This document shows, piece by piece, positions 1 through 12,867 of a DNA stretch of 12,867 nucleotides (position 1 is the first letter of the stretch; every line of letters begins with the position of its first letter). Both the position numbers and the translations under genes were made by a program. This stretch comes from a virus: the UHGV virus genome UHGV-1325408; one strand, written 5' to 3'. Under the pieces are notes generated by a model, which searched no databases, was not told where the DNA came from, and worked only from the letters and a program-made list of their open reading frames with translations.

Positions 1-3660
<3,660 letters not shown>

Positions 3661-3680
<20 letters not shown>

Positions 3681-4980
3681 TCTCCCGCATATTGCCAGCA
3701 TGGCCTTTAATGAGCCACTGATGCTTGAACCCGCCTATGCGCGGGTTTTCTTTTGTGCGCTTGCAGGCCAGCTTGGGATCAGCCGCCTGACGGATGCGGT
3801 GTCCGGCGACAGCCTGACTGCCCAGGAGGCACTCGCGACGCTGGCATTATCCGGTGATGATGACGGACCACGACAGGCCCGCAGTTATCAGGTCATGAAC
3901 GGCATCGCCGTGCTGCCGGTGTCCGGCACGCTGGTCAGCCGGACGCGGGCGCTGCAGCCGTATTCGGGGATGACCGGTTACAACGGCATTATCGCCCGTC
4001 TGCAACAGGCTGCCAGCGATCCGATGGTGGACGGCATTCTGCTCGATATGGACACGCCCGGCGGGATGGTGGCGGGGGCATTTGACTGCGCTGACATCAT
4101 CGCCCGTGTGCGTGACATAAAACCGGTATGGGCGCTTGCCAACGACATGAACTGCAGTGCAGGTCAGTTGCTTGCCAGTGCCGCCTCCCGGCGTCTGGTC
4201 ACGCAGACCGCCCGGACAGGCTCCATCGGCGTCATGATGGCTCACAGTAATTACGGTGCTGCGCTGGAGAAACAGGGTGTGGAAATCACGCTGATTTACA
4301 GCGGCAGCCATAAGGTGGATGGCAACCCCTACAGCCATCTTCCGGATGACGTCCGGGAGACACTGCAGTCCCGGATGGACGCAACCCGCCAGATGTTTGC
4401 GCAGAAGGTGTCGGCATATACCGGCCTGTCCGTGCAGGCTGTGCTGGATACCGAGGCTGCAGTGTACAGCGGTCAGGAGGCCATTGATGCCGGACTGGCT
4501 GATGAACTTGTTAACAGCACCGATGCGATCACCGTCATGCGTGATGCACTGGATGCACGTAAATCCCGTCTCTCAGGAGGGCGAATGACCAAAGAGACTC
4601 AATCAACAACTGTTTCAGCCACTGCTTCGCAGGCTGACGTTACTGACGTGGTGCCAGCGACGGAGGGCAAAAACGCCAGCGCGGCGCAGCCGGATGTGAA
4701 CGCGCAGATCACCGCAGCGGTTGCGGCAGAAAACAGCCGCATTATGGGGATCCTCAACTGTGAGGAGGCTCACGGACGCGAAGAACAGGCACGCGTGCTG
4801 GCCGAAACCCCCGGTATGACCGTGGAAACGGCCCGCCGCATTCTGGCAGCTGCACCACAGAGTGCACAGGCGCGCAGTGACACTGCGCTGGATCGTCTGA
4901 TGCAGGGGGCACCGGCACCGCTGGCTGCAGGTAACCCGGCATCTGATGCCGTTAACGATTTGCTGAACACACCAGTGTAA
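3661..4980 (+). CDS. C: Head maturation protease / scaffold gpC (S49 ClpP-like family), GTG start
   Basis: Frame of ORF 3526..4980. The lambda gpC N-terminus (M)TAELRNLPHIASMAFNEPLMLEPAYARVFF begins at GTG 3661, preceded by AGGAGGAG (about 3648-3655). Overlaps the B 3' end by 20 nt. The upstream ATG at 3526 lies inside B and is not the real start. Confidence 0.9.
4375..4980 (+). CDS. Nu3: Scaffolding protein Nu3, translated from an internal in-frame start within C (co-terminal with C)
   Basis: In-frame ATG at 4375 (MDATRQMFAQKVSAYTGLSV...) with the same stop as C at 4978-4980. This matches the known nested C/Nu3 arrangement of lambda. Confidence 0.8.
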   Translation: MDATRQMFAQKVSAYTGLSVQAVLDTEAAVYSGQEAIDAGLADELVNSTDAITVMRDALDARKSRLSGGRMTKETQSTTVSATASQADVTDVVPATEGKNASAAQPDVNAQITAAVAAENSRIMGILNCEEAHGREEQARVLAETPGMTVETARRILAAAPQSAQARSDTALDRLMQGAPAPLAAGNPASDAVNDLLNTPV

Positions 4981-4989
4981 GGGATGTTT

Positions 4990-5322
4990 ATGACGAGCAA
5001 AGAAACCTTTACCCATTACCAGCCGCTGGGCAACAGTGACCCGGCACATACGGCAACCGCGCCCGGCGGATTGAGTGCGAAAGCGCCTGCAATGACCCCG
5101 CTGATGCTGGACACCTCCACCCGTAAGCTGGTTGTGTGGGATGGCACCACCGACGGTGCTGCCGTTGGCATTCTGGCGGTTGCTGCTGACCAGACCAGCA
5201 CCACGCTGACGTTCTACAAGTCCGGCACGTTCCGTTATGAGGATGTGCTCTGGCCGGAGGCTGCCAGCGACGAGACGAAAAAACGGACCGCGTTTGCCGG
5301 AACGGCAATCAGCATCGTTTAA
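4990..5322 (+). CDS. D: Capsid decoration protein gpD (110 aa)
   Basis: Translation [52 protein letters not shown]...[10 protein letters not shown] matches lambda gpD. The ORF track's start at 4984 adds MF; I take ATG 4990 as the start. Confidence 0.93.
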
Positions 5323-5342
5323 CCTTACCCTTCATCACTAAA

Positions 5343-5364
5343 GGCCGCCTGTGCGGCTTTTTTT
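5343..5364 (+). terminator. GC-rich hairpin followed by a T7 run in the D-E intergenic region (intrinsic-terminator-like or mRNA-stability element)
   Basis: aaGGCCGCctgtGCGGCttttttt: stem GCCGC (5344-5348) / GCGGC (5353-5357), 4-nt loop, then 7 T's (5358-5364), located between the D stop (5322) and the E start (5378). Confidence 0.35.
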
Positions 5365-5377
5365 ACGGGATTTTTTT

Positions 5378-6403
5378 ATGTCGATGTACACAACCGCCCA
5401 GCTGCTGGCGGCAAATGAGAAGAAATTTAAGTTTGATCCGCTGTTTCTGCGTCTCTTTTTCCGTGAGAGCTATCCCTTCACCACGGAGAAAGTCTATCTC
5501 TCACAAATTCCGGGACTGGTAAACATGGCGCTGTACGTTTCGCCGATTGTTTCCGGTGAGGTTATCCGCTCCCGTGGCGGCTCCACCTCTGAATTTACAC
5601 CGGGATATGTCAAGCCGAAGCATGAGGTGAATCCGCAGATGACCCTGCGTCGCCTGCCGGATGAAGATCCACAGAATCTGGCGGACCCGGCTTACCGCCG
5701 CCGTCGCATCATCCTGCAGAACATGCGAGACGAAGAGCTGGCCATTGCTCAGGTCGAAGAGATGCAGGCCGTTTCTGCCGTGCTTAAGGGCAAATATACC
5801 ATGACCGGTGAAGCCTTCGATCCGGTTGAAGTGGATATGGGCCGCAGTGTGGCGAACAACATCACGCAGTCCGGCGGTACGGAGTGGAGCAAGCGTGACA
5901 AGTCCACGTATGACCCGACCGACGATATCGAAGCCTACGCGCTGAACGCCAGCGGTGTGGTGAATATCATCGTGTTTGATCCGAAAGGCTGGGCGCTGTT
6001 CCGTTCCTTCAAAGCCGTCAAGGAGAAGCTGGATACCCGTCGCGGCTCTAATTCCGAGCTGGAGACAGCGGTAAAAGACCTGGGCGAAGCGGTGTCCTAT
6101 AAGGGGATGTATGGCGATACGGCGATCGTCGTGTATTCCGGACAGTACGTGGAAAACGACGTCAAAAAGAACTTCCTGCCGGACAACACGATGGTGCTGG
6201 GGAACACTCAGGCACGCGGTCTGCGCACCTATGGCTGCATTCAGGATGCGGACGCACAGCGCGAAGGTATTAACGCCTCTGCCCGCTACCCGAAAAACTG
6301 GGTGACCACCGGCGATCCGGCGCGTGAGTTCACCATGATTCAGTCAGCACCGCTGATGCTGCTGGCTGACCCTGATGCGTTCGTGTCCGTACAACTGGCG
6401 TAA
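5378..6403 (+). CDS. E: Major capsid protein gpE (341 aa)
   Basis: Translation MSMYTTAQLLAANEKKFKFDPLFLRLFFRESYPFTTEKVYLSQIPGLVNMALYVSPIVSGEV... ending ...ADPDAFVSVQLA matches lambda gpE. The ORF-track start at 5351 is an upstream in-frame ATG inside the hairpin. Confidence 0.95.
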   Translation: MSMYTTAQLLAANEKKFKFDPLFLRLFFRESYPFTTEKVYLSQIPGLVNMALYVSPIVSGEVIRSRGGSTSEFTPGYVKPKHEVNPQMTLRRLPDEDPQNLADPAYRRRRIILQNMRDEELAIAQVEEMQAVSAVLKGKYTMTGEAFDPVEVDMGRSVANNITQSGGTEWSKRDKSTYDPTDDIEAYALNASGVVNIIVFDPKGWALFRSFKAVKEKLDTRRGSNSELETAVKDLGEAVSYKGMYGDTAIVVYSGQYVENDVKKNFLPDNTMVLGNTQARGLRTYGCIQDADAQREGINASARYPKNWVTTGDPAREFTMIQSAPLMLLADPDAFVSVQLA

Positions 6404-6444
6404 TCATGGCCCTTCGGGGCCATTTTCTCTCTGTGGAGGAGTCC

Positions 6445-6843
6445 ATGACGAAAGATGAACTGATTGCCCGTCTTCAGGTGCTGGGTGAGCAACTGAACCG
6501 TGATGTCAGCCTGACGGGGACGAAAGAAGAACTGGCACTCCGTGTGGCAGAGCTGGAAGAGGAGCTTGATGACACGGATGAAACTGCCGGTCAGGACACC
6601 CCTCTCAGCCGGGAAAATGTGCTGACCGGACATGAAAATGAGGTGGGATCAGCGCAGCCGGATACCGTGATTCTGGATACGTCTGAACTGGTCACGGTCG
6701 TGGCACTGGTGAAGCTGCATACTGATGCACTTCACGCCACGCGGGATGAACCTGTGGCATTTGTGCTGCCGGGAACGGCGTTTCGTGTCTCTGCCGGTGT
6801 GGCAGCCGAAATGACAGAGCGCGGCCTGGCCAGAATGCAATAA
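6445..6843 (+). CDS. FI: DNA-packaging / head assembly protein gpFI (132 aa)
   Basis: Translation MTKDELIARLQVLGEQLNRDVSLTGTKEELALRVAELEEELDDTDETAGQD... matches lambda gpFI. GGAGGAG Shine-Dalgarno at about 6433-6439 upstream of ATG 6445. Confidence 0.9.
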   Translation: MTKDELIARLQVLGEQLNRDVSLTGTKEELALRVAELEEELDDTDETAGQDTPLSRENVLTGHENEVGSAQPDTVILDTSELVTVVALVKLHTDALHATRDEPVAFVLPGTAFRVSAGVAAEMTERGLARMQ

Positions 6844-6854
6844 CGGGAGGCGCT

Positions 6855-7208
6855 GTGGCTGATTTCGATAACCTGTTCGATGCTGCCATTGCCCGCGCCG
6901 ATGAAACGATACGCGGGTACATGGGAACGTCAGCCACCATTACATCCGGTGAGCAGTCAGGTGCGGTGATACGTGGTGTTTTTGATGACCCTGAAAATAT
7001 CAGCTATGCCGGACAGGGCGTGCGCGTTGAAGGCTCCAGCCCGTCCCTGTTTGTCCGGACTGATGAGGTGCGGCAGCTGCGGCGTGGAGACACGCTGACC
7101 ATCGGTGAGGAAAATTTCTGGGTAGATCGGGTTTCGCCGGATGATGGCGGAAGTTGTCATCTCTGGCTTGGACGGGGCGTACCGCCTGCCGTTAACCGTC
7201 GCCGCTGA
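6855..7208 (+). CDS. FII: Head-tail connector protein gpFII (117 aa), GTG start
   Basis: Translation (M)ADFDNLFDAAIARADETIRGYMGTSATITSGEQSGAVIRGVFDDPENISYAGQGVRVEGSSP... matches lambda gpFII. GGGAGG at 6845-6850 precedes GTG 6855. Confidence 0.9.
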   Translation: MADFDNLFDAAIARADETIRGYMGTSATITSGEQSGAVIRGVFDDPENISYAGQGVRVEGSSPSLFVRTDEVRQLRRGDTLTIGEENFWVDRVSPDDGGSCHLWLGRGVPPAVNRRR

Positions 7209-7219
7209 AAGGGGGATGT

Positions 7220-7798
7220 ATGGCCATAAAAGGTCTTGAGCAGGCCGTTGAAAACCTCAGCCGTATCAGCAAAACGGCGGTGTCTGGTGCCGCCGCAATG
7301 GCCATTAACCGCGTTGCTTCATCCGCGATATCGCAGTCTGCGTCACAGGTTGCCCGTGAGACAAAGGTACGTCGAAAACTGGTAAAGGAAAGGGCCAGGC
7401 TGAAAAGGGCCACGGTCAAAAATCCGCAGGCCAGAATCAAAGTTAACCGGGGGGATTTGCCCGTAATCAAGCTGGGTAATGCGCGGGTTGTCCTGTCCCG
7501 CCGCAGGCGTCGTAAAAAGGGGCAGCGTTCATCCCTGAAAGGTGGCGGCAGCGTGCTTGTGGTGGGTAACCGTCGTATTCCCGGCGCGTTTATTCAGCAA
7601 CTGAAAAATGGCCGGTGGCATGTTATGCAGCGTGTGGCCGGGAAAAACCGTTACCCCATTGATGTGGTGAAAATCCCGATGGCGGTGCCGCTTACCACGG
7701 CGTTTAAACAGAATATTGAACGGATACGGCGTGAACGTCTTCCGAAAGAGCTGGGCTATGCGCTGCAGCATCAACTGAGAATGGTAATAAAGCGATGA
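7220..7798 (+). CDS. Z: Tail completion protein gpZ (192 aa)
   Basis: Translation MAIKGLEQAVENLSRISKTAVSGAAAMAINRVASSAISQSASQVARETKVRRKLVKERARLKRATV... matches lambda gpZ. Stop overlaps the U start (ATGA at 7795-7798). Confidence 0.9.
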   Translation: MAIKGLEQAVENLSRISKTAVSGAAAMAINRVASSAISQSASQVARETKVRRKLVKERARLKRATVKNPQARIKVNRGDLPVIKLGNARVVLSRRRRRKKGQRSSLKGGGSVLVVGNRRIPGAFIQQLKNGRWHVMQRVAGKNRYPIDVVKIPMAVPLTTAFKQNIERIRRERLPKELGYALQHQLRMVIKR

Positions 7799-8190
7799 AA
7801 CATACTGAACTCCGTGCAGCCGTACTGGATGCACTGGAGAAGCATGACACCGGGGCGACGCTTTTTGATGGTCGCCCCGCTGTTTTTGATGAGGAAGATT
7901 TTCCGGCAATTGCCGTTTATCTCACCGGCGCTGAATACACGGGCGAAGAGCTGGACAGCGATACCTGGCAGGCGGAGCTGCATATTGAAGTTTTCCTGCC
8001 TGCTCAGGTGCCGGATTCAGAGCTGGATTCGTGGATGGAGTCCCGGATTTATCCGGTGATGAGCGATATCCCGGCACTGTCAGATTTGATCACCAGTATG
8101 GTGGCCAGTGGCTATGACTACCGGCGCGACGATGATGCGGGCCTGTGGAGTTCAGCCGATCTGACTTATGTCATTACCTATGAAATGTGA
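7795..8190 (+). CDS. U: Tail tube terminator protein gpU (131 aa)
   Basis: Translation [71 protein letters not shown]... matches lambda gpU. Confidence 0.92.
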
Positions 8191-8197
8191 GGACGCT

Positions 8198-8938
8198 ATG
8201 CCTGTACCAAATCCTACAATGCCGGTGAAAGGTGCCGGGACCACCCTGTGGGTTTATAAGGGGAGCGGTGACCCTTATGCGAATCCGCTTTCAGACGTTG
8301 ACTGGTCGCGTCTGGCAAAAGTTAAAGACCTGACGCCCGGCGAACTGACCGCTGAGTCCTATGACGACAGCTATCTCGATGATGAAGATGCAGACTGGAC
8401 TGCGACCGGGCAGGGGCAGAAATCTGCCGGAGATACCAGCTTCACGCTGGCGTGGATGCCCGGAGAGCAGGGGCAGCAGGCGCTGCTGGCGTGGTTTAAT
8501 GAAGGTGATACCCGTGCCTATAAAATCCGCTTCCCGAACGGCACGGTCGATGTGTTCCGCGGCTGGGTCAGCAGTATCGGTAAGGCGGTGACGGCGAAGG
8601 AAGTGATCACCCGCACGGTGAAAGTCACCAACGTGGGACGTCCGTCGATGGCAGAAGATCGCAGCACGGTGACGGCGGCAACCGGCATGACCGTGACGCC
8701 TGCCAGCACCTCGGTGGTGAAAGGGCAGAGCACGACGCTGACCGTGGCATTCCAGCCGGAAGGCGCAACCGACAAGAGCTTCCGTGCGGTGTCTGCGGAT
8801 AAAACAAAAGCCACCGTGTCGGTCAGTGGTATGACCATCACCGTGAAAGGTGTTGCTGCAGGCAAGGTCAACATTCCGGTCGTATCCGGTAATGGTGAGT
8901 TTGCTGCGGTTGCAGAAATCAACGTCACCGCCAGTTAA
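8198..8938 (+). CDS. V: Major tail tube protein gpV (246 aa), including the C-terminal Ig-like (Big_2-type) domain
   Basis: Translation [73 protein letters not shown]... matches lambda gpV. GAGGA Shine-Dalgarno at about 8187-8191 before ATG 8198; the ORF-track start at 8168 lies inside U. Confidence 0.95.
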
Positions 8939-8953
8939 TCCGGAGAATCAGCG

Positions 8954-9376
8954 ATGTTCCTGAAAACCGAATCATTTGAACATAACGGCGTGACCGTCAC
9001 GCTTTCTGAACTGTCAGCCCTGCAGCGTATTGAGCATCTCGCCCTGATGAAACGGCAGGCAGAACAGGCGGAGTCAGACAGCAACCGGAAGTTTACTGTG
9101 GAAGACGCCATCAGAACCGGCGCTTTTGTGGTGGCGATGTCCCTGTGGCATAACCATCCGAAGAAGACGCAGATGCCGTCCATGAATGAAGCCGTTAAAC
9201 AGATTGAGCAGGAAGTGCTTACCACCTGGCCCACGGAGGCAATTTCTCATGCTGAAAACGTGGTGTACCGGCTGTCTGGTATGTATGAGTTTGTGGTGAA
9301 TAATGCCCCTGAACAGACAGAGGACGCCGGGCCCGCAGAGCCTGTTTCTGCGGGAAAGTGTTCGACGGTGAGCTGA
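8954..9376 (+). CDS. G: Tail assembly chaperone gpG (140 aa)
   Basis: Translation MFLKTESFEHNGVTVTLSELSALQRIEHLALMKRQAEQAESDSNRKFTVEDAIRTGAFVVAMSLWHNHP...PVSAGKCSTVS matches lambda gpG. Stop TGA at 9374-9376. Confidence 0.92.
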   Translation: MFLKTESFEHNGVTVTLSELSALQRIEHLALMKRQAEQAESDSNRKFTVEDAIRTGAFVVAMSLWHNHPKKTQMPSMNEAVKQIEQEVLTTWPTEAISHAENVVYRLSGMYEFVVNNAPEQTEDAGPAEPVSAGKCSTVS

Positions 9377-9792
9377 GTTTTGCCCTGAAACTGGCGCGTG
9401 AGATGGGGCGACCCGACTGGCGTGCCATGCTTGCCGGGATGTCATCCACGGAGTATGCCGACTGGCACCGCTTTTACAGTACCCATTATTTTCATGATGT
9501 TCTGCTGGATATGCACTTTTCCGGGCTGACGTACACCGTGCTCAGCCTGTTTTTCAGCGATCCGGAGATGCATCCGCTGGATTTCAGTCTGCTGAACCGG
9601 CGCGAGGCTGACGAAGAGCCTGAAGATGATGTGCTGATGCAGAAAGCGGCAGGGCTTGCCGGAGGCGTTCGTTTTGGCCCGGACGGGAATGAAGTTATCC
9701 CCGCTTCCCCGGATGTGGCGGACATGACGGAGGATGACGTAATGCTGATGACAGTATCAGAAGGGATCGCAGGAGGAGTCCGGTATGGCTGA
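8954..9792 (+). CDS. GT: Tail assembly chaperone gpGT, produced by a programmed -1 ribosomal frameshift at 9352-9358 that joins G to the T frame
   Basis: The T-frame ORF (…GKVFDGELSFALKLAREMGRPDWRAMLAGMSSTEYADWHRFYSTHYFHDV...) has no independent canonical start and overlaps the G 3' end. The slippery heptamer G GGA AAG sits in the G zero frame at 9352-9358. T stop is TGA at 9790-9792, overlapping the H start. Confidence 0.85.
9352..9358 (+). promoter_or_regulatory. Programmed -1 frameshift slippery heptamer GGGAAAG (G to GT)
   Basis: Sequence cGGGAAAGtg, with codon phasing G|GGA|AAG in the G frame verified from the G start at 8954. This is the known lambda G-T recoding site. Confidence 0.85.
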
Positions 9793-11915
9793 ACCGGTAG
9801 GCGATCTGGTCGTTGATTTAAGTCTGGATGCGGCCAGATTTGACGAGCAGATGGCCAGAGTCAGGCGTCATTTTTCCGGTACGGAAACTGATGCGAAAAA
9901 AACAGCGGCAGTCGTTGAACAGTCGCTGAGCCGACAGGTGCTGGCTGCACAGAAAGCGGGGATTTCCGTCGGGCAGTATAAAGCCGCCATGCGTATGCTG
10001 CCTGCACAGTTCACCGACGTGGCTACGCAGCTTGTAGGCGGGCAAAGCCCGTGGCTGATCCTGCTGCAACAGGGTGGTCAGGTTAAGGACTCCTTCGGCG
10101 GGATGATCCCCATGTTCCGGGGGCTTGCCGGTGCGATCACCCTGCCGATGGTCGGGGCCACCTCGCTGGCGGTGGCGACCGGTGCGCTGGCGTATGCCTG
10201 GTATCAGGGTAACTCAACCCTGTCCGATTTCAACAAAACGCTGGTCCTTTCCGGTAATCAGTCGGGTCTGACGGCAGATCGTATGCTGGTCCTGTCCAGA
10301 GCCGGGCAGGCGGCAGGGCTGACGTTTAACCAGACCAGCGAGTCACTCAGTGCACTGGTTAAGGCGGGGGTAAGCGGTGAGGCTCAGATTGCGTCCATCA
10401 GCCAGAGTGTGGCGCGTTTCTCTTCTGCATCCGGCGTGGAGGTGGACAAGGTCGCTGAAGCCTTCGGGAAGCTGACCACTGACCCGACGTCGGGGCTGAC
10501 GGCGATGGCGCGCCAGTTCCATAACGTGACGGCGGAGCAGATTGCGTATGTTGCTCAGTTGCAGCGTTCCGGCGATGAAGCCGGGGCATTGCAGGCGGCG
10601 AACGAGGCCGCAACGAAAGGGTTTGATGACCAGACCCGACGCCTGAAAGAGAACATGGGCACGCTGGAAACCTGGGCAGACAGGACAGCACGGGCATTCA
10701 AATCCATGTGGGATGCGGTGCTGGATATTGGTCGTCCTGATACCGCGCAGGAGATGCTGATTAAGGCAGAGGCTGCGTTTAAGAAAGCGGACGACATCTG
10801 GAATCTGCGCAAGGATGATTATTTTGTTAACGATGAAGCGCGGGCGCGTTACTGGGATGATCGTGAAAAGGCCCGTCTTGCGCTTGAAGCCGCCCGAAAG
10901 AAGGCTGAACAGCAGAGTCAACAGGACAAAAATGCGCAGCAGCAGAGCGATACCGAAGCATCACGGCTGAAATATACCGAAGAGGCGCAGAAGGCTTACG
11001 AACGGCTGCAGACACCGCTGGAGAAATATACCGCCCGTCAGGAAGAACTGAACAAGGCACTGAAAGACGGGAAAATCCTGCAGGCAGATTACAACACGCT
11101 GATGGCGGCGGCGAAAAAGGATTATGAAGCGACGCTGAAAAAGCCGAAACAGTCCGGCGTGAAGGTGTCTGCGGGCGATCGTCAGGAAGACAGTGCTCAT
11201 GCTGCCCTGCTGACGCTTCAGGCAGAACTCCGGACGCTGGAGAAGCATGCCGGAGCGAATGAGAAAATCAGCCAGCAGCGCCGGGATTTGTGGAAGGCGG
11301 AAAATCAGTTCGCGGTACTGGAGGAGGCGGCACAACGTCGCCAGCTATCCGCACAGGAGAAATCCCTGCTGGCGCATAAAGATGAGACGCTGGAGTACAA
11401 ACGCCAGCTGGCTGTACTTGGCGATAAGGTCACGTATCAGGAGCACCTGAACGCGCTGGCGCAGCAGGCGGATAAGTTCGCACAGCAACAACGGGCAAAA
11501 CGGGCAGCCATTGAGGCGAAAAACCGGGGGCTTACTGACCGGCAGGCAGCGCGGGACGCCACGGAACAGCGTCTGAAGGAGCAGTATGGCGATAATCCGC
11601 TGGCGCTAAATAACGTCATGTCAGAGCAGAAAAAGACCTGGGCAGCTGAAGACCTGCTTCGCGGGAGCTGGATGGCTGGCCTCAAGTCCGGCTGGAGCGA
11701 GTGGAAAGAGAGTGCCACGGACAGTATGTCGCAGGTTAAAAGTGCTGCCACGCAGACCTTTGATGGTATTGCGCAGAATATGGCGGCGATGCTGACCGGC
11801 AGTGAGCAGAACTGGCGCAGCTTCACCCGTTCCGTGCTGTCCATGATGACAGAAATTCTGCTTAAGCAGGCAATGGTGGGGATTGTCGGAAGTATAGGCA
11901 GCGCCATTGGCGGCG
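9785..11915 (+). pseudogene. H: Tape measure protein gpH, N-terminal ~710 codons only; homology ends at a rearrangement breakpoint (about 11915-11917)
   Basis: Translation MAEPVGDLVVDLSLDAARFDEQMARVRRHFSGTETDAKK... through ...MMTEILLKQAMVGIVGSIGSAIGG matches lambda gpH. After this the + frame reads VAVSVDEVHRIQKTG..., which is the antisense of gene L, instead of the expected glycine-rich gpH continuation. The 865-aa ORF 9785..12382 is an accidental read-through. Confidence 0.85.
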
Positions 11916-11917
11916 TC

Positions 11918-12286
11918 GCTGTTTCCGTTGACGAAGTTCACCGCATCCAGAAAACGGGCATAAACCTTACGCCTGACCACCGTTCCGCCGACCAGACTCT
12001 GCAGATCTTCCGCCATCCCGGTGACCATGCCATACAGGTTAGAAACCGTCAGCGTGGGGCGCGTACTGGTGCCTTTGCCATTCAGTTCGAAACCACTCCC
12101 CTGAATGGGATACGCCTGATACTGTCGCCCCTGCCAGGTGACCGGCTCACCTTTTTCGTTCTGCTCATTACAGAAAAAATAACGTTCTCCACCAACCTCT
12201 GTCAGATCGATTTCCCAGAGCACCACGCTGGCCGACTGCTCCGCACGGGTGCATTCATTCAGTGTTTCCTGTCGGATATCCTGCAT
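11918..12286 (-). pseudogene. L: Tail tip assembly protein gpL, N-terminal 123 codons only (inverted relative to the rest of the module); truncated at the breakpoint
   Basis: Minus-strand ORF 11621..12286 starts MQDIRQETLNECTRAEQSASVVLWEIDLTEVGGERYFFCNEQNEKGEPVTWQGRQYQ...RFLDAVNFVNGNS (gpL N-terminus), then continues as antisense of H for 98 codons. Start ATG overlaps the M stop (TGATG). Confidence 0.85.
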
Positions 12287-12615
12287 CAGTTCACCACCTG
12301 TTCAAACTCTGCGCTGAACTCAACACGCAACATACTGACCCGCGACGACCATTTTGCGCAGGTCACCTTTATCTGCCGGTAGCCATAAGGCGGCGTCCAC
12401 AGAAAGGATTTCCAGCCCCCGTGCTCAGCCAGAAACGACTCAAGCGCCGTGGCCTCCCAACGGGGAACAGAAAGCGTCACGCTGTACGTTTTCAGGTCGG
12501 CATTCAGCCCGGCAGGCGCTCGCTGGGAATAGCCATCACCAAAGCGCACCTTTCTTACGGAAGGGGCCGAAGCCACATCCATACCGGGTTTCACTTTCCA
12601 GCGGAAGGTTTTCAT
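12286..12615 (-). CDS. M: Tail tip protein gpM (109 aa), complete but in inverted orientation relative to upstream tail genes
   Basis: Translation MKTFRWKVKPGMDVASAPSVRKVRFGDGYSQRAPAGLNADLKTYSVTLSVPRWEATALESFLAEHGGWKSFLWTPPYGYRQIKVTCAKWSSRVSMLRVEFSAEFEQVVN matches lambda gpM. ATGA overlap with the stop of the H C-terminal fragment. Confidence 0.9.
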   Translation of the reverse strand: MKTFRWKVKPGMDVASAPSVRKVRFGDGYSQRAPAGLNADLKTYSVTLSVPRWEATALESFLAEHGGWKSFLWTPPYGYRQIKVTCAKWSSRVSMLRVEFSAEFEQVVN

Positions 12616-12749
12616 CGTCCACCTCCGGAGAACAGACCACCATCGCGCATCTGCCCGGTCACAACATCCATTGCCGCCTTACGGGCTACGTCATAAACAG
12701 CCTTCAGTGCCTGTGGCCCTATCTGACCGTTCGTGCCGTCGTTGTTTAT
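12612..12749 (-). pseudogene. H: Tape measure protein gpH, C-terminal 45 codons (detached fragment on the - strand)
   Basis: The last 45 residues of minus ORF 12612..12845 (INNDGTNGQIGPQALKAVYDVARKAAMDVVTGQMRDGGLFSGGGR) match the gpH C-terminus. The preceding 32 residues (MPVSIIPEPKSFAISALTRLYTILIVLGKPWG) come from unrelated DNA. Confidence 0.85.
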
Positions 12750-12750
12750 C

Positions 12751-12867
12751 CCCCAAGGCTTGCCTAATACGATCAATATCGTATACAGCCTCGTTAGAGC
12801 CGATATGGCGAATGACTTCGGCTCCGGTATTATGGATACAGGCATTAATTTTATTTAATACTTGTTG
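12751..12867. other. Unassigned lower-GC segment abutting the inverted lambda block; possible 3' end of a - strand gene whose body lies beyond the window
   Basis: I counted 49 G+C in 117 nt (about 42%), versus the visibly GC-richer lambda structural genes. It is stop-free on the - strand in the frame reading QQVLNKINACIHNTGAEVIRHIGSNEAVYDIDRIRQALG, and does not continue the gpH sequence expected here. Confidence 0.4.

Follow-up and report, generated by a model that had tools for sequence, protein, structure and literature searches.

Gene content and non-colinear joins

The window, which is the entire 12,867-nt stretch of the viral genome record UHGV-1325408, carries lambda-like head and tail genes. 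Genes W to T are all full length and no indel was observed relative to lambda over 11.8 kb; the source is therefore a working phage, not a remnant in decay. The window contains three non-colinear joins, namely J1 (127/128), J2 (approximately 11913) and J3 (approximately 12746). At J1, the sequence passes from lambda position 1850 to position 885, jumping back by 966 nt without a change of strand; the overlap is 1 nt. A 620-aa fused ORF on the + strand (17..1879) spans J1 and places terminase A codons 344-380 in frame with codons 59-641.

J2 lies within the tape measure gene H. The match to the H strand of lambda ends at 11913, or at 11915 in comparison with the closest relative, and from 11911 onwards the window carries L, M and the 3' end of H in reverse complement. 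The five nucleotides at 11911..11915 (CGGCG) are common to the H strand and to antisense L. This microhomology is 3 nt (CGG) when lambda is used as the reference, and extends to 8 of 9 positions when mismatches are allowed. At least 5 nt would arise under blunt random joins with P = 0.0046. In the coordinates of the normally ordered prophage of strain KK05-19, J2 connects H at 13629 to L at 14749 in inverted orientation, a span of 1,120 nt. The GC skew flips across this join, from about +0.11 to +0.19 on the H side to about -0.17 beyond it.

The inverted piece downstream of J2 is approximately 836 nt long. It begins with the 5' part of gene L (codons 1-125; 11911..12286, - strand) and continues with gene M (12286..12615, - strand), which is inverted relative to H but intact, encoding 109 aa that match Pfam Phage_min_tail over positions 1-108 of 108. 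The DNA of gene M is 100% identical in 13 finished genomes. The piece closes with the last 44 codons and the stop codon of gene H (12612..12746, - strand), the translation of which is identical to the H C-terminus of KK05-19. The 284 nt of H that lie between this inverted 3' piece and the J2 break are missing from the window. At J3, antisense H meets the region of an alpha/beta-hydrolase gene through a shared GTTGTT (12741..12746; 11 of 13 positions when extended; P = 0.0013 for at least 6 nt under blunt random joins), connecting H at 13914 to the hydrolase gene at 26367 in KK05-19 coordinates. The inverted piece is thus non-reciprocal and runs into a b-region gene located about 12.5 kb away. 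No long inverted repeat able to mediate homologous inversion was found near the joins, where only microhomologies of 5-6 nt are present. Blunt ligation chimeras were rejected for J2 and J3, since the microhomology at both exceeds chance.

The 865-aa frame across J2

Both long ORFs described across J2 in the initial annotation are present, each with an ATG start: an 865-aa frame on the + strand (9785..12382) and a 221-aa frame on the - strand (11621..12286). The + strand frame consists of gpH codons 1-710 (9785..11915) followed by 155 antisense codons (11916..12382). BLASTP aligns residues 1-710 to lambda gpH without gaps and with 692 of 710 identities (97%), and no alignment to lambda gpH was obtained beyond residue 710. 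The H part retains both Pfam domains, PF06791 TMP_2 at residues 54-256 (232 bits) and PF09718 Tape_meas_lam_C at residues 627-701 (74.5 bits), with scores equal to those of native gpH. The fused protein also scores 289 bits against NCBIfam TIGR01541, an equivalog-domain model for the C-terminal region, above the cut-off of 104.75. Of the 332 positions of this profile, however, it covers only 2-231, whereas lambda gpH covers 2-332.

The tail of the + strand frame is non-genic read-through. Its 155 codons lie antisense to L (about 124) and M (32), in codon-aligned register opposite gpL codons 125-1 and the last 32 gpM codons. The earlier proposal that the last 155 or so residues are antisense L and M, not tape measure sequence, is thereby borne out by alignment. 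At the DNA level the tail is the reverse complement of L and M, with 2 mismatches over 843 nt relative to finished genomes. The tail matches no Pfam or NCBIfam family, and its first-position purine bias is 0.50, compared with 0.64 in the H part of the same frame. By tblastn it is placed only under annotated L and M genes; in those listed records that follow the lambda map orientation, the matches are on the minus strand. Its protein matches are Pfam-less hypothetical shadow ORFs opposite L-M. Among 5.8 billion sequences searched, no tape measure protein carries it.

One such shadow product, the 266-aa Pfam-less hypothetical protein UTI89_C1512 of Escherichia coli, is 89% identical to the 155-aa tail and corresponds to this antisense frame in prophages of normal arrangement. 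Unlike these shadow ORFs, the frame in the window continues in phase from the start of a real gene, which supplies it with a strong start, a ribosome-binding context and domain matches. In exchange, the fused frame lacks gpH residues 711-853. These residues include the C-terminal helix 818-842, a coiled coil that is seated on the gpI tripod in the tail tip (PMC10721106). The fused protein is thus like lambda gpH over residues 1-710, with antisense L/M sequence in place of the remainder.

The 221-aa frame and the openness of both strands

The - strand frame lies fully inside the + strand frame and combines gpL codons 1-125 with antisense H. Residues 1-125 are identical to gpL at 122 of 125 positions (98%) by BLASTP, and nothing significant was obtained against gpL past residue 125. 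The initial annotation gave 98 codons of antisense H for the remainder. The composition is correct, and about 96 codons were counted here, a gap that falls within the ambiguity of the 5-nt overlap. The profile coverage of the fused L is partial, with positions 1-97 of 206 in Phage_tail_L (PF05100) and 2-116 of 224 in TIGR01600. Compared with the lambda tail tip protein gpL, the frame is without the C-terminal half. The missing half includes the [4Fe-4S] domain, which comprises residues 154-232 with Cys173, Cys182, Cys205 and Cys212 (PMC10721106).

Like the tail of the + strand frame, the antisense H tail matches no Pfam or NCBIfam family. Both C-terminal tails are thus empty in domain searches, as had been anticipated, and identity is lost abruptly at the join, the gpH match ending at residue 710 and the gpL match at residue 125. 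Neither tail aligns to tape measure or gpL sequences; only antisense L/M DNA and shadow ORFs were matched. Both ORFs are therefore confirmed to be chimeric, and the two long frames are by-products of the join, not genes.

Both strands remain open across J2 because the antisense register is codon-aligned and stop codons are rare in it; TTA, CTA and TCA make up only 1.0% of the codons in the lambda left arm. Among simulated random inverted joins, the read-through reaches 155 codons or more in 9%, and the fused ORF comes within 5% of native length in 8%. The native-like length of the fused H (865 compared with 853 aa) is consequently a mild coincidence and not a signal.

Comparison with normally ordered relatives and sequence databases

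All pieces of the window are colinear in the normally ordered prophage of KK05-19. The H side of the window differs from this prophage by 1 mismatch over 10127-11913 (1.8 kb), an 833-nt M/L query is 100% identical to it, and the 843-nt blastn piece that runs through the join is 99.8% identical. The order H(853)-M(109)-L(232) was observed in 10 of 10 further related loci. Junction-spanning queries were searched with mismatch-tolerant BLAST against 5,426 finished E. coli genomes, requiring at least 80% query coverage at one place. No genome reached this threshold for J1, J2 or J3. The exact junction strings of all three joins have zero matches in IMG/VR, and the exact J2 string has zero matches in GTDB genomes and JGI metagenomes. 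Among 50,697 phage records, none carries H adjoining the inverted L-M piece within a single match, and exact-product look-up returned no record of the fused H, fused L or fused A proteins. The capsid protein is very widespread, with a listing in 9,580 blocks. A recent private rearrangement would equally be expected to be missing from all of these databases.

A related inversion is found in the lambda-like prophage of E. coli STEC1575 (NZ_CP116044.1), on a finished chromosome. In this prophage a reciprocal inversion between H and lom breaks H at one and the same coordinate at both junctions, and its two ends carry complementary halves of lom. As in the window, H is fused to antisense DNA in an ORF of near-native length (841 aa), which PGAP called an intact tape measure protein; the leftover fragments were flagged as pseudogenes. 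The STEC1575 inversion is clean and reciprocal, whereas the joins in the window are non-reciprocal. The H breaks of J3 and STEC1575 lie only 18 nt apart. A shared hotspot was considered, but no common junction sequence was seen on inspection and the proximity was treated as coincidence.

The contig ends are 127-nt blocks that belong elsewhere

Both ends of the window consist of a block of exactly 127 nt from another locus of the same phage. The left block (1..127, + strand) is a perfect copy of window positions 967-1093. The right block (12741..12867, + strand) matches, at 100% identity, the alpha/beta-hydrolase gene region found in the same prophage type, which on the normal map lies about 12.5 kb further downstream. 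Counting in the junction microhomology, both are maximal exact foreign blocks. Blocks of this length are the signature that an edge of a k = 127 assembly graph yields when it ends at a shared vertex, and from them we infer a SPAdes-type assembler and this k value for the record. Overlaps of 127 bp at contig ends are a documented SPAdes signature and an assembly artefact (PMC5923482). In the usual case both ends repeat each other, as in circular or permuted genomes (PMC8104045), whereas here each end repeats a separate internal or distant locus.

The left 127-mer is present at two places in the window and continues differently at each, so the ordinary adjacency exists alongside J1. More generally, the distance of J1 and J3 from the contig ends is exactly one k-mer, which means that the sample also contained other neighbours of those 127-mers. 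The overlaps at the joins are far shorter than k, which implies that junction-spanning k-mers existed in the reads. A mis-join over a repeat common to two prophages was rejected because of these short overlaps.

Origin of the joins

The presence of three joins, the non-reciprocal inverted piece and the 127-nt distances to the ends argue for a chimeric contig over a genome rearrangement. We consider it probable that the record is a lambda-like A-to-H arm from a k = 127 de Bruijn assembly, in which the joins are artefactual or derive from minority molecules and the fused ORFs are by-products. J2, like J1 and J3, would then not belong to the consensus structure of the phage. The source would be a lambda-like phage or prophage, represented by its head and tail morphogenesis arm (A to H). 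At approximately 11913 the contig path would leave H after codon 710 and resume on the opposite strand 1.1 kb downstream, inside L. From there it would cover L codons 125-1, M and the final 44 codons of H in reverse before jumping to the hydrolase gene 12.5 kb away. With both strands open across J2, the 865-aa 'tape measure' ORF and the 221-aa 'L' ORF would arise as by-products.

The joins themselves may have formed by microhomology-primed template switching, or may come from rare rearranged molecules in the sample, and would have been threaded into the contig by the assembler. Chimeras formed by polymerase template switching during multiple displacement amplification (MDA) are inverted with a deletion in 85% of cases, show complementarity of 2-21 nt and are favoured at distances below 10 kb (PMC1855051). 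J2 has the same properties, being inverted with an intervening deletion of 1.1 kb and a 5-nt complementarity (CGGCG), and J3 is likewise inverted, with 6 nt. J1 is unlike such chimeras in being a direct join with an overlap of only 1 nt. Speaking against an artefact, the assembler path crosses J2 with no break, which suggests that this join had reasonable support in the data.

The strongest competitor of the chimeric contig is a real, complex rearrangement that became fixed in a lambda-like prophage, now defective, though we regard it as distinctly the less likely of the two. It would require the deletion of approximately 12.7 kb (the rest of H, M, L, K, I, J, lom, stf, tfa and part of the b region), an inverted 836-nt filler drawn from within the deleted stretch, and, in terminase gene A, an in-frame tandem duplication of 966 nt. 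In such a tail-less prophage, the fused ORFs would exist as real frames resembling pseudogenes. The microhomology joins suit illegitimate recombination in vivo or replication template switching, and the unbroken passage of the contig through J2 fits as well. The genuine inversion of the same module in the finished STEC1575 genome provides a precedent, and other odd L fusions occur in public assemblies (P0011, P0013). Against these points, three independent joins would have to fall in an otherwise pristine, indel-free module, two of them exactly one k-mer from the contig ends, and the left 127-mer has both of its continuations within the window. The joins are also absent from the finished genomes and IMG/VR, and J2 additionally from the phage records, JGI and GTDB.

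Somewhat less likely still is that the three joins are in vivo events on one molecule, a prophage caught just after a replication-based, microhomology-mediated rearrangement that produced the deletion, the inverted filler and the terminase duplication together. Such an event would abolish tail formation and leave an intact-looking tape measure gene.

A simple reciprocal inversion bounded by H and L, of the STEC1575 kind, was implied by the wording of the initial annotation, which had a single breakpoint or inversion being hidden by annotation. H is indeed joined to antisense L at J2 with inverted M beyond, but a reciprocal inversion predicts an inverted segment that reaches the H break (KK05-19 13630), with the remainder of L coming after it. 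The segment instead stops 284 nt short, at 13914, and enters the hydrolase gene 12.5 kb away, so the two ends do not share the same two breakpoints. With three non-colinear joins, a non-reciprocal piece of approximately 836 nt and two joins 127 nt from the ends, this explanation is contradicted by the window sequence and very improbable. Finally, the idea that the ORF encodes a true tape measure variant whose C-terminal module is different yet functional is effectively refuted: only the native-like length and the two retained Pfam domains speak for it, whereas the tail is family-less reverse complement of L and M, is without the purine bias, displaces gpH 711-853 with its tail-tip coiled coil (PMC10721106) and is found on no known tape measure protein in the sequences searched.

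Consequences for annotation

The initial annotation expected automated pipelines to call both frames as intact genes. For the H fusion this is well founded, given its Pfam domains, its score above the TIGR01541 cut-off and the STEC1575 precedent. It does not hold for the two frames together, because the 221-aa ORF is nested in the 865-aa ORF on the opposite strand with an overlap of 666 nt. Standard gene callers are not known to allow a nested opposite-strand overlap of this kind.

When a fused frame retains the start, both Pfam domains and nearly the native length, it clears HMM naming cut-offs and is annotated as an intact gene. Such calls can mislead, since inference of tail length and phage typing sometimes rely on the length of the tape measure protein. 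Partial profile coverage (TIGR01541 2-231 of 332), a flip of GC skew within an ORF and contig-end blocks of exactly k nucleotides are diagnostic of such cases. The locus reveals no new biology; if the joins were real, they would represent one more defective prophage.

Fused reading frames across the H-L join

At J2, a join near position 11913, H codon 710 runs into antisense L codon 125 with an overlap of CGGCG. Both ORFs described in the initial annotation, a plus-strand frame of 865 aa (9785-12382; fused H) and a minus-strand frame of 221 aa (11621-12286; fused L), are present, and the abrupt loss of identity expected at the join was recovered by alignment. In the 865-aa product, alignment to lambda gpH is confined to residues 1-710 (692/710 identical); in the 221-aa product, alignment to gpL is confined to residues 1-125 (122/125 identical). 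At the DNA level, the H-strand match stops at 11913-11915, the reverse-complement match to L starts at 11911, and the GC skew switches sign across J2. The last 155 residues of fused H are, as proposed, antisense L and M: they read opposite L codons 125-1 and the final 32 codons of M. Fused L joins the gpL N-terminus to approximately 96 codons of antisense H, compared with the 98 first noted. Neither tail matches a Pfam or NCBIfam family, also as anticipated.

In tblastn searches, the only places in other lambdoid phages matched by the 155-aa tail are beneath their annotated L and M genes; in the listed records with lambda map orientation, these matches are on the minus strand. No join-spanning protein was found among 5.8 billion protein sequences, in which the matches form two classes. 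H-part-only matches are tape-measure fragments covering just the 40 H-derived query residues, whereas tail-only matches are hypothetical proteins without Pfam domains, such as UTI89_C1512, and are shadow ORFs in the same antisense frame of normal prophages. In UTI89_C1512 and its relatives, which belong to normally arranged prophages, the open stretch antisense to L-M reaches up to 266 codons, and several genomes carry it as a deposited 'hypothetical protein'. This conserved frame is a shadow ORF, not a gene. Both fused ORFs are non-genic, arising as by-products where the contig contains a chimeric join, and therefore represent no new biology.

Length and annotation of the fused frames

J2 places both fused frames in a codon-aligned antisense register, in which stops arise solely opposite TTA, CTA and TCA; these make up 48 of 4,850 codons (1.0%) in the lambda left arm. 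In a simulation of 200,000 inverted joins, 155 or more codons were read through in 9%, and in 8% the fused ORF came within 5% of the native length; where a join fell in L in this register, the median read-through was 158 codons. The native-like length of fused H is only mildly surprising.

The chimeric nature of both ORFs stands, and the expectation that automated annotation would call both as intact genes holds for the H fusion only. Fused H keeps both Pfam domains with native scores and passes TIGR01541 (289 bits; cut-off, 104.75) while covering only profile positions 2-231 of 332. An analogous 841-aa H fusion in the finished E. coli genome STEC1575 (NZ_CP116044.1) is annotated by PGAP as an intact tape measure protein; the annotation warning for fused H is therefore justified. 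Comparable leftover fragments in STEC1575 are flagged by PGAP as pseudogenes. Calling of both ORFs is unlikely because the 221-aa ORF lies wholly inside the 865-aa ORF on the opposite strand (666-nt overlap), a nesting that gene callers are not known to allow.

Three joins in a lambda-like morphogenesis arm

By ORF layout and megablast, the window is the left morphogenesis arm from a lambda-like phage. Its gene order is terminase A, W, B, C/Nu3, D, E, FI, FII, Z, U, V, G, T and H, and all genes from W to T are full length. Positions 127-11913 align without gaps to lambda J02459 884-12670; the 168 substitutions leave an identity of 98.6%. The A, W and B genes (127-3626) are base-for-base identical to lambda (100%), whereas the normally ordered prophage of E. 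coli KK05-19 shows 4-13 mismatches per 500 nt to these first 3.5 kb. The H region (10127-11913) reverses this pattern, being closer to KK05-19 (one mismatch) than to lambda. Either normal lambdoid mosaicism or co-assembly of two related phages could produce this combination; the pattern of identity points to an ordinary mosaic lambdoid as the source phage.

The window contains three non-colinear joins, not one. J1 (127/128) stays on the same strand and jumps back 966 nt (322 codons), from lambda 1850 to 885, with a 1-nt overlap. Window 1-127 is a perfect copy of 967-1093 (127-nt direct repeat, 100%), and a third fused ORF (17-1879) places terminase A codons 344-380 in frame with codons 59-641 across J1. 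On the normal map, the partner site of J2 is found 1,120 nt downstream. The inverted piece that follows is only approximately 836 nt long and comprises L codons 1-125, M and the final 44 H codons. At J3 (near 12746), the inverted H end meets an alpha/beta-hydrolase gene region with an overlap of GTTGTT. Sequence from this hydrolase gene of the phage b region fills the last 127 nt (12741-12867). The hydrolase region matches the b region of related phages at 100% identity, and on the normal map it is located 12,453 nt downstream. A further fused frame, of 77 aa on the minus strand (12612-12845), starts in the hydrolase block and continues into the authentic C-terminus of H.

Rearrangements in related loci

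A reciprocal inversion is ruled out for the window because the 284 nt of H between the J2 and J3 breakpoints are absent. In contrast, STEC1575 carries a genuine reciprocal inversion of the same module, in which one H coordinate is common to both junctions and two lom halves flank the segment. This inversion, located at 18085-18160 and 24900-24975 of locus L002, is clean, and the inverted segment reads lom'-J-I-K-L-M-'H. The STEC1575 H breakpoint is approximately 18 nt from that of J3, which is probably a coincidence, since inspection found no junction sequence shared between them.

Two other loci differ in separate ways. In CP032892.1 (L009, 1-6800), Nu1-A-W-B upstream of gene C is swapped for genes encoding a D5-type primase, SSB, a second Phage_cap_E capsid protein, an HDPD decoration protein, AlpA and a Nu1-like small terminase, a set that resembles a capsid-forming phage satellite adjoining a lambda-like prophage. 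In the related prophage of CP075640.1 (L015), an IS element with an rve-family transposase (14331-15508) lies between T and H and is genuine prophage decay in the same module.

Origin of the joins

The joins are probably an artefact or a minority molecule and not a fixed genome structure. All three lie within an otherwise pristine module, two of them exactly at contig ends, and KK05-19 represents a normally ordered parent type in which all pieces are colinear. Ten further related loci all read H853-M109-L232 (10/10). J1, J2 and J3 do not occur in any of 5,426 finished E. coli genomes or in IMG/VR, nor does J2 occur in 50,697 phage records, GTDB genomes or JGI metagenomes. Polymerase template switching would be the most likely source of such molecules. 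J2 is inverted, with a 1.1-kb intervening deletion and 5 nt in common, and in inversion, deletion size and complementarity it fits template-switch chimeras, 85% of which are inverted with deletions, with 2-21 nt of complementarity and a preference for distances below 10 kb (PMC1855051). In vivo microhomology-mediated recombination would leave junctions of the same appearance. The position of the joins, the normal order in KK05-19 and the ten other loci, and the absence of the joins from finished genomes and IMG/VR make a real defective prophage the less likely reading. Microhomology exceeds the blunt-join expectation at J2 (P = 0.0046) and J3 (P = 0.0013), which argues against ligation chimeras for both.

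Another public assembly, a 36.9-kb ENA contig, encodes a 203-aa product (P0011) in which gpL residues 1 to approximately 98 are followed by antisense gpL. This fold-back type inverted join within gene L suggests that inverted chimeras recur in lambdoid tail modules.

The foreign blocks at both window ends are exactly 127 nt each, junction microhomology included. The largest k of SPAdes is 127. Such blocks would be expected from a de Bruijn graph edge ending at the first k-mer common to another path at k = 127, and 127-bp end overlaps have been documented as an artefact of SPAdes (PMC5923482, PMC8104045). We infer that the 12,867-nt window is the whole contig, with branch vertices as its ends. 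Inside the window, the left 127-mer continues in two ways, once from 128 and once from 1094, so that the normal adjacency is present alongside J1. The join overlaps are far shorter than k, which requires that the reads contained k-mers spanning the junctions; the joins thus correspond to molecules physically present in the library, not to pure graph mis-traversal.

Consequences for tail assembly

Were the molecule real, residues 711-853 would be missing from fused H, among them the coiled coil at 818-842 that rests on gpI within the tail tip (PMC10721106), and the Fe-S domain would be missing from fused L (PMC10721106). The loss would extend to K, I, J and the side fibre genes, and tail assembly would be impossible.
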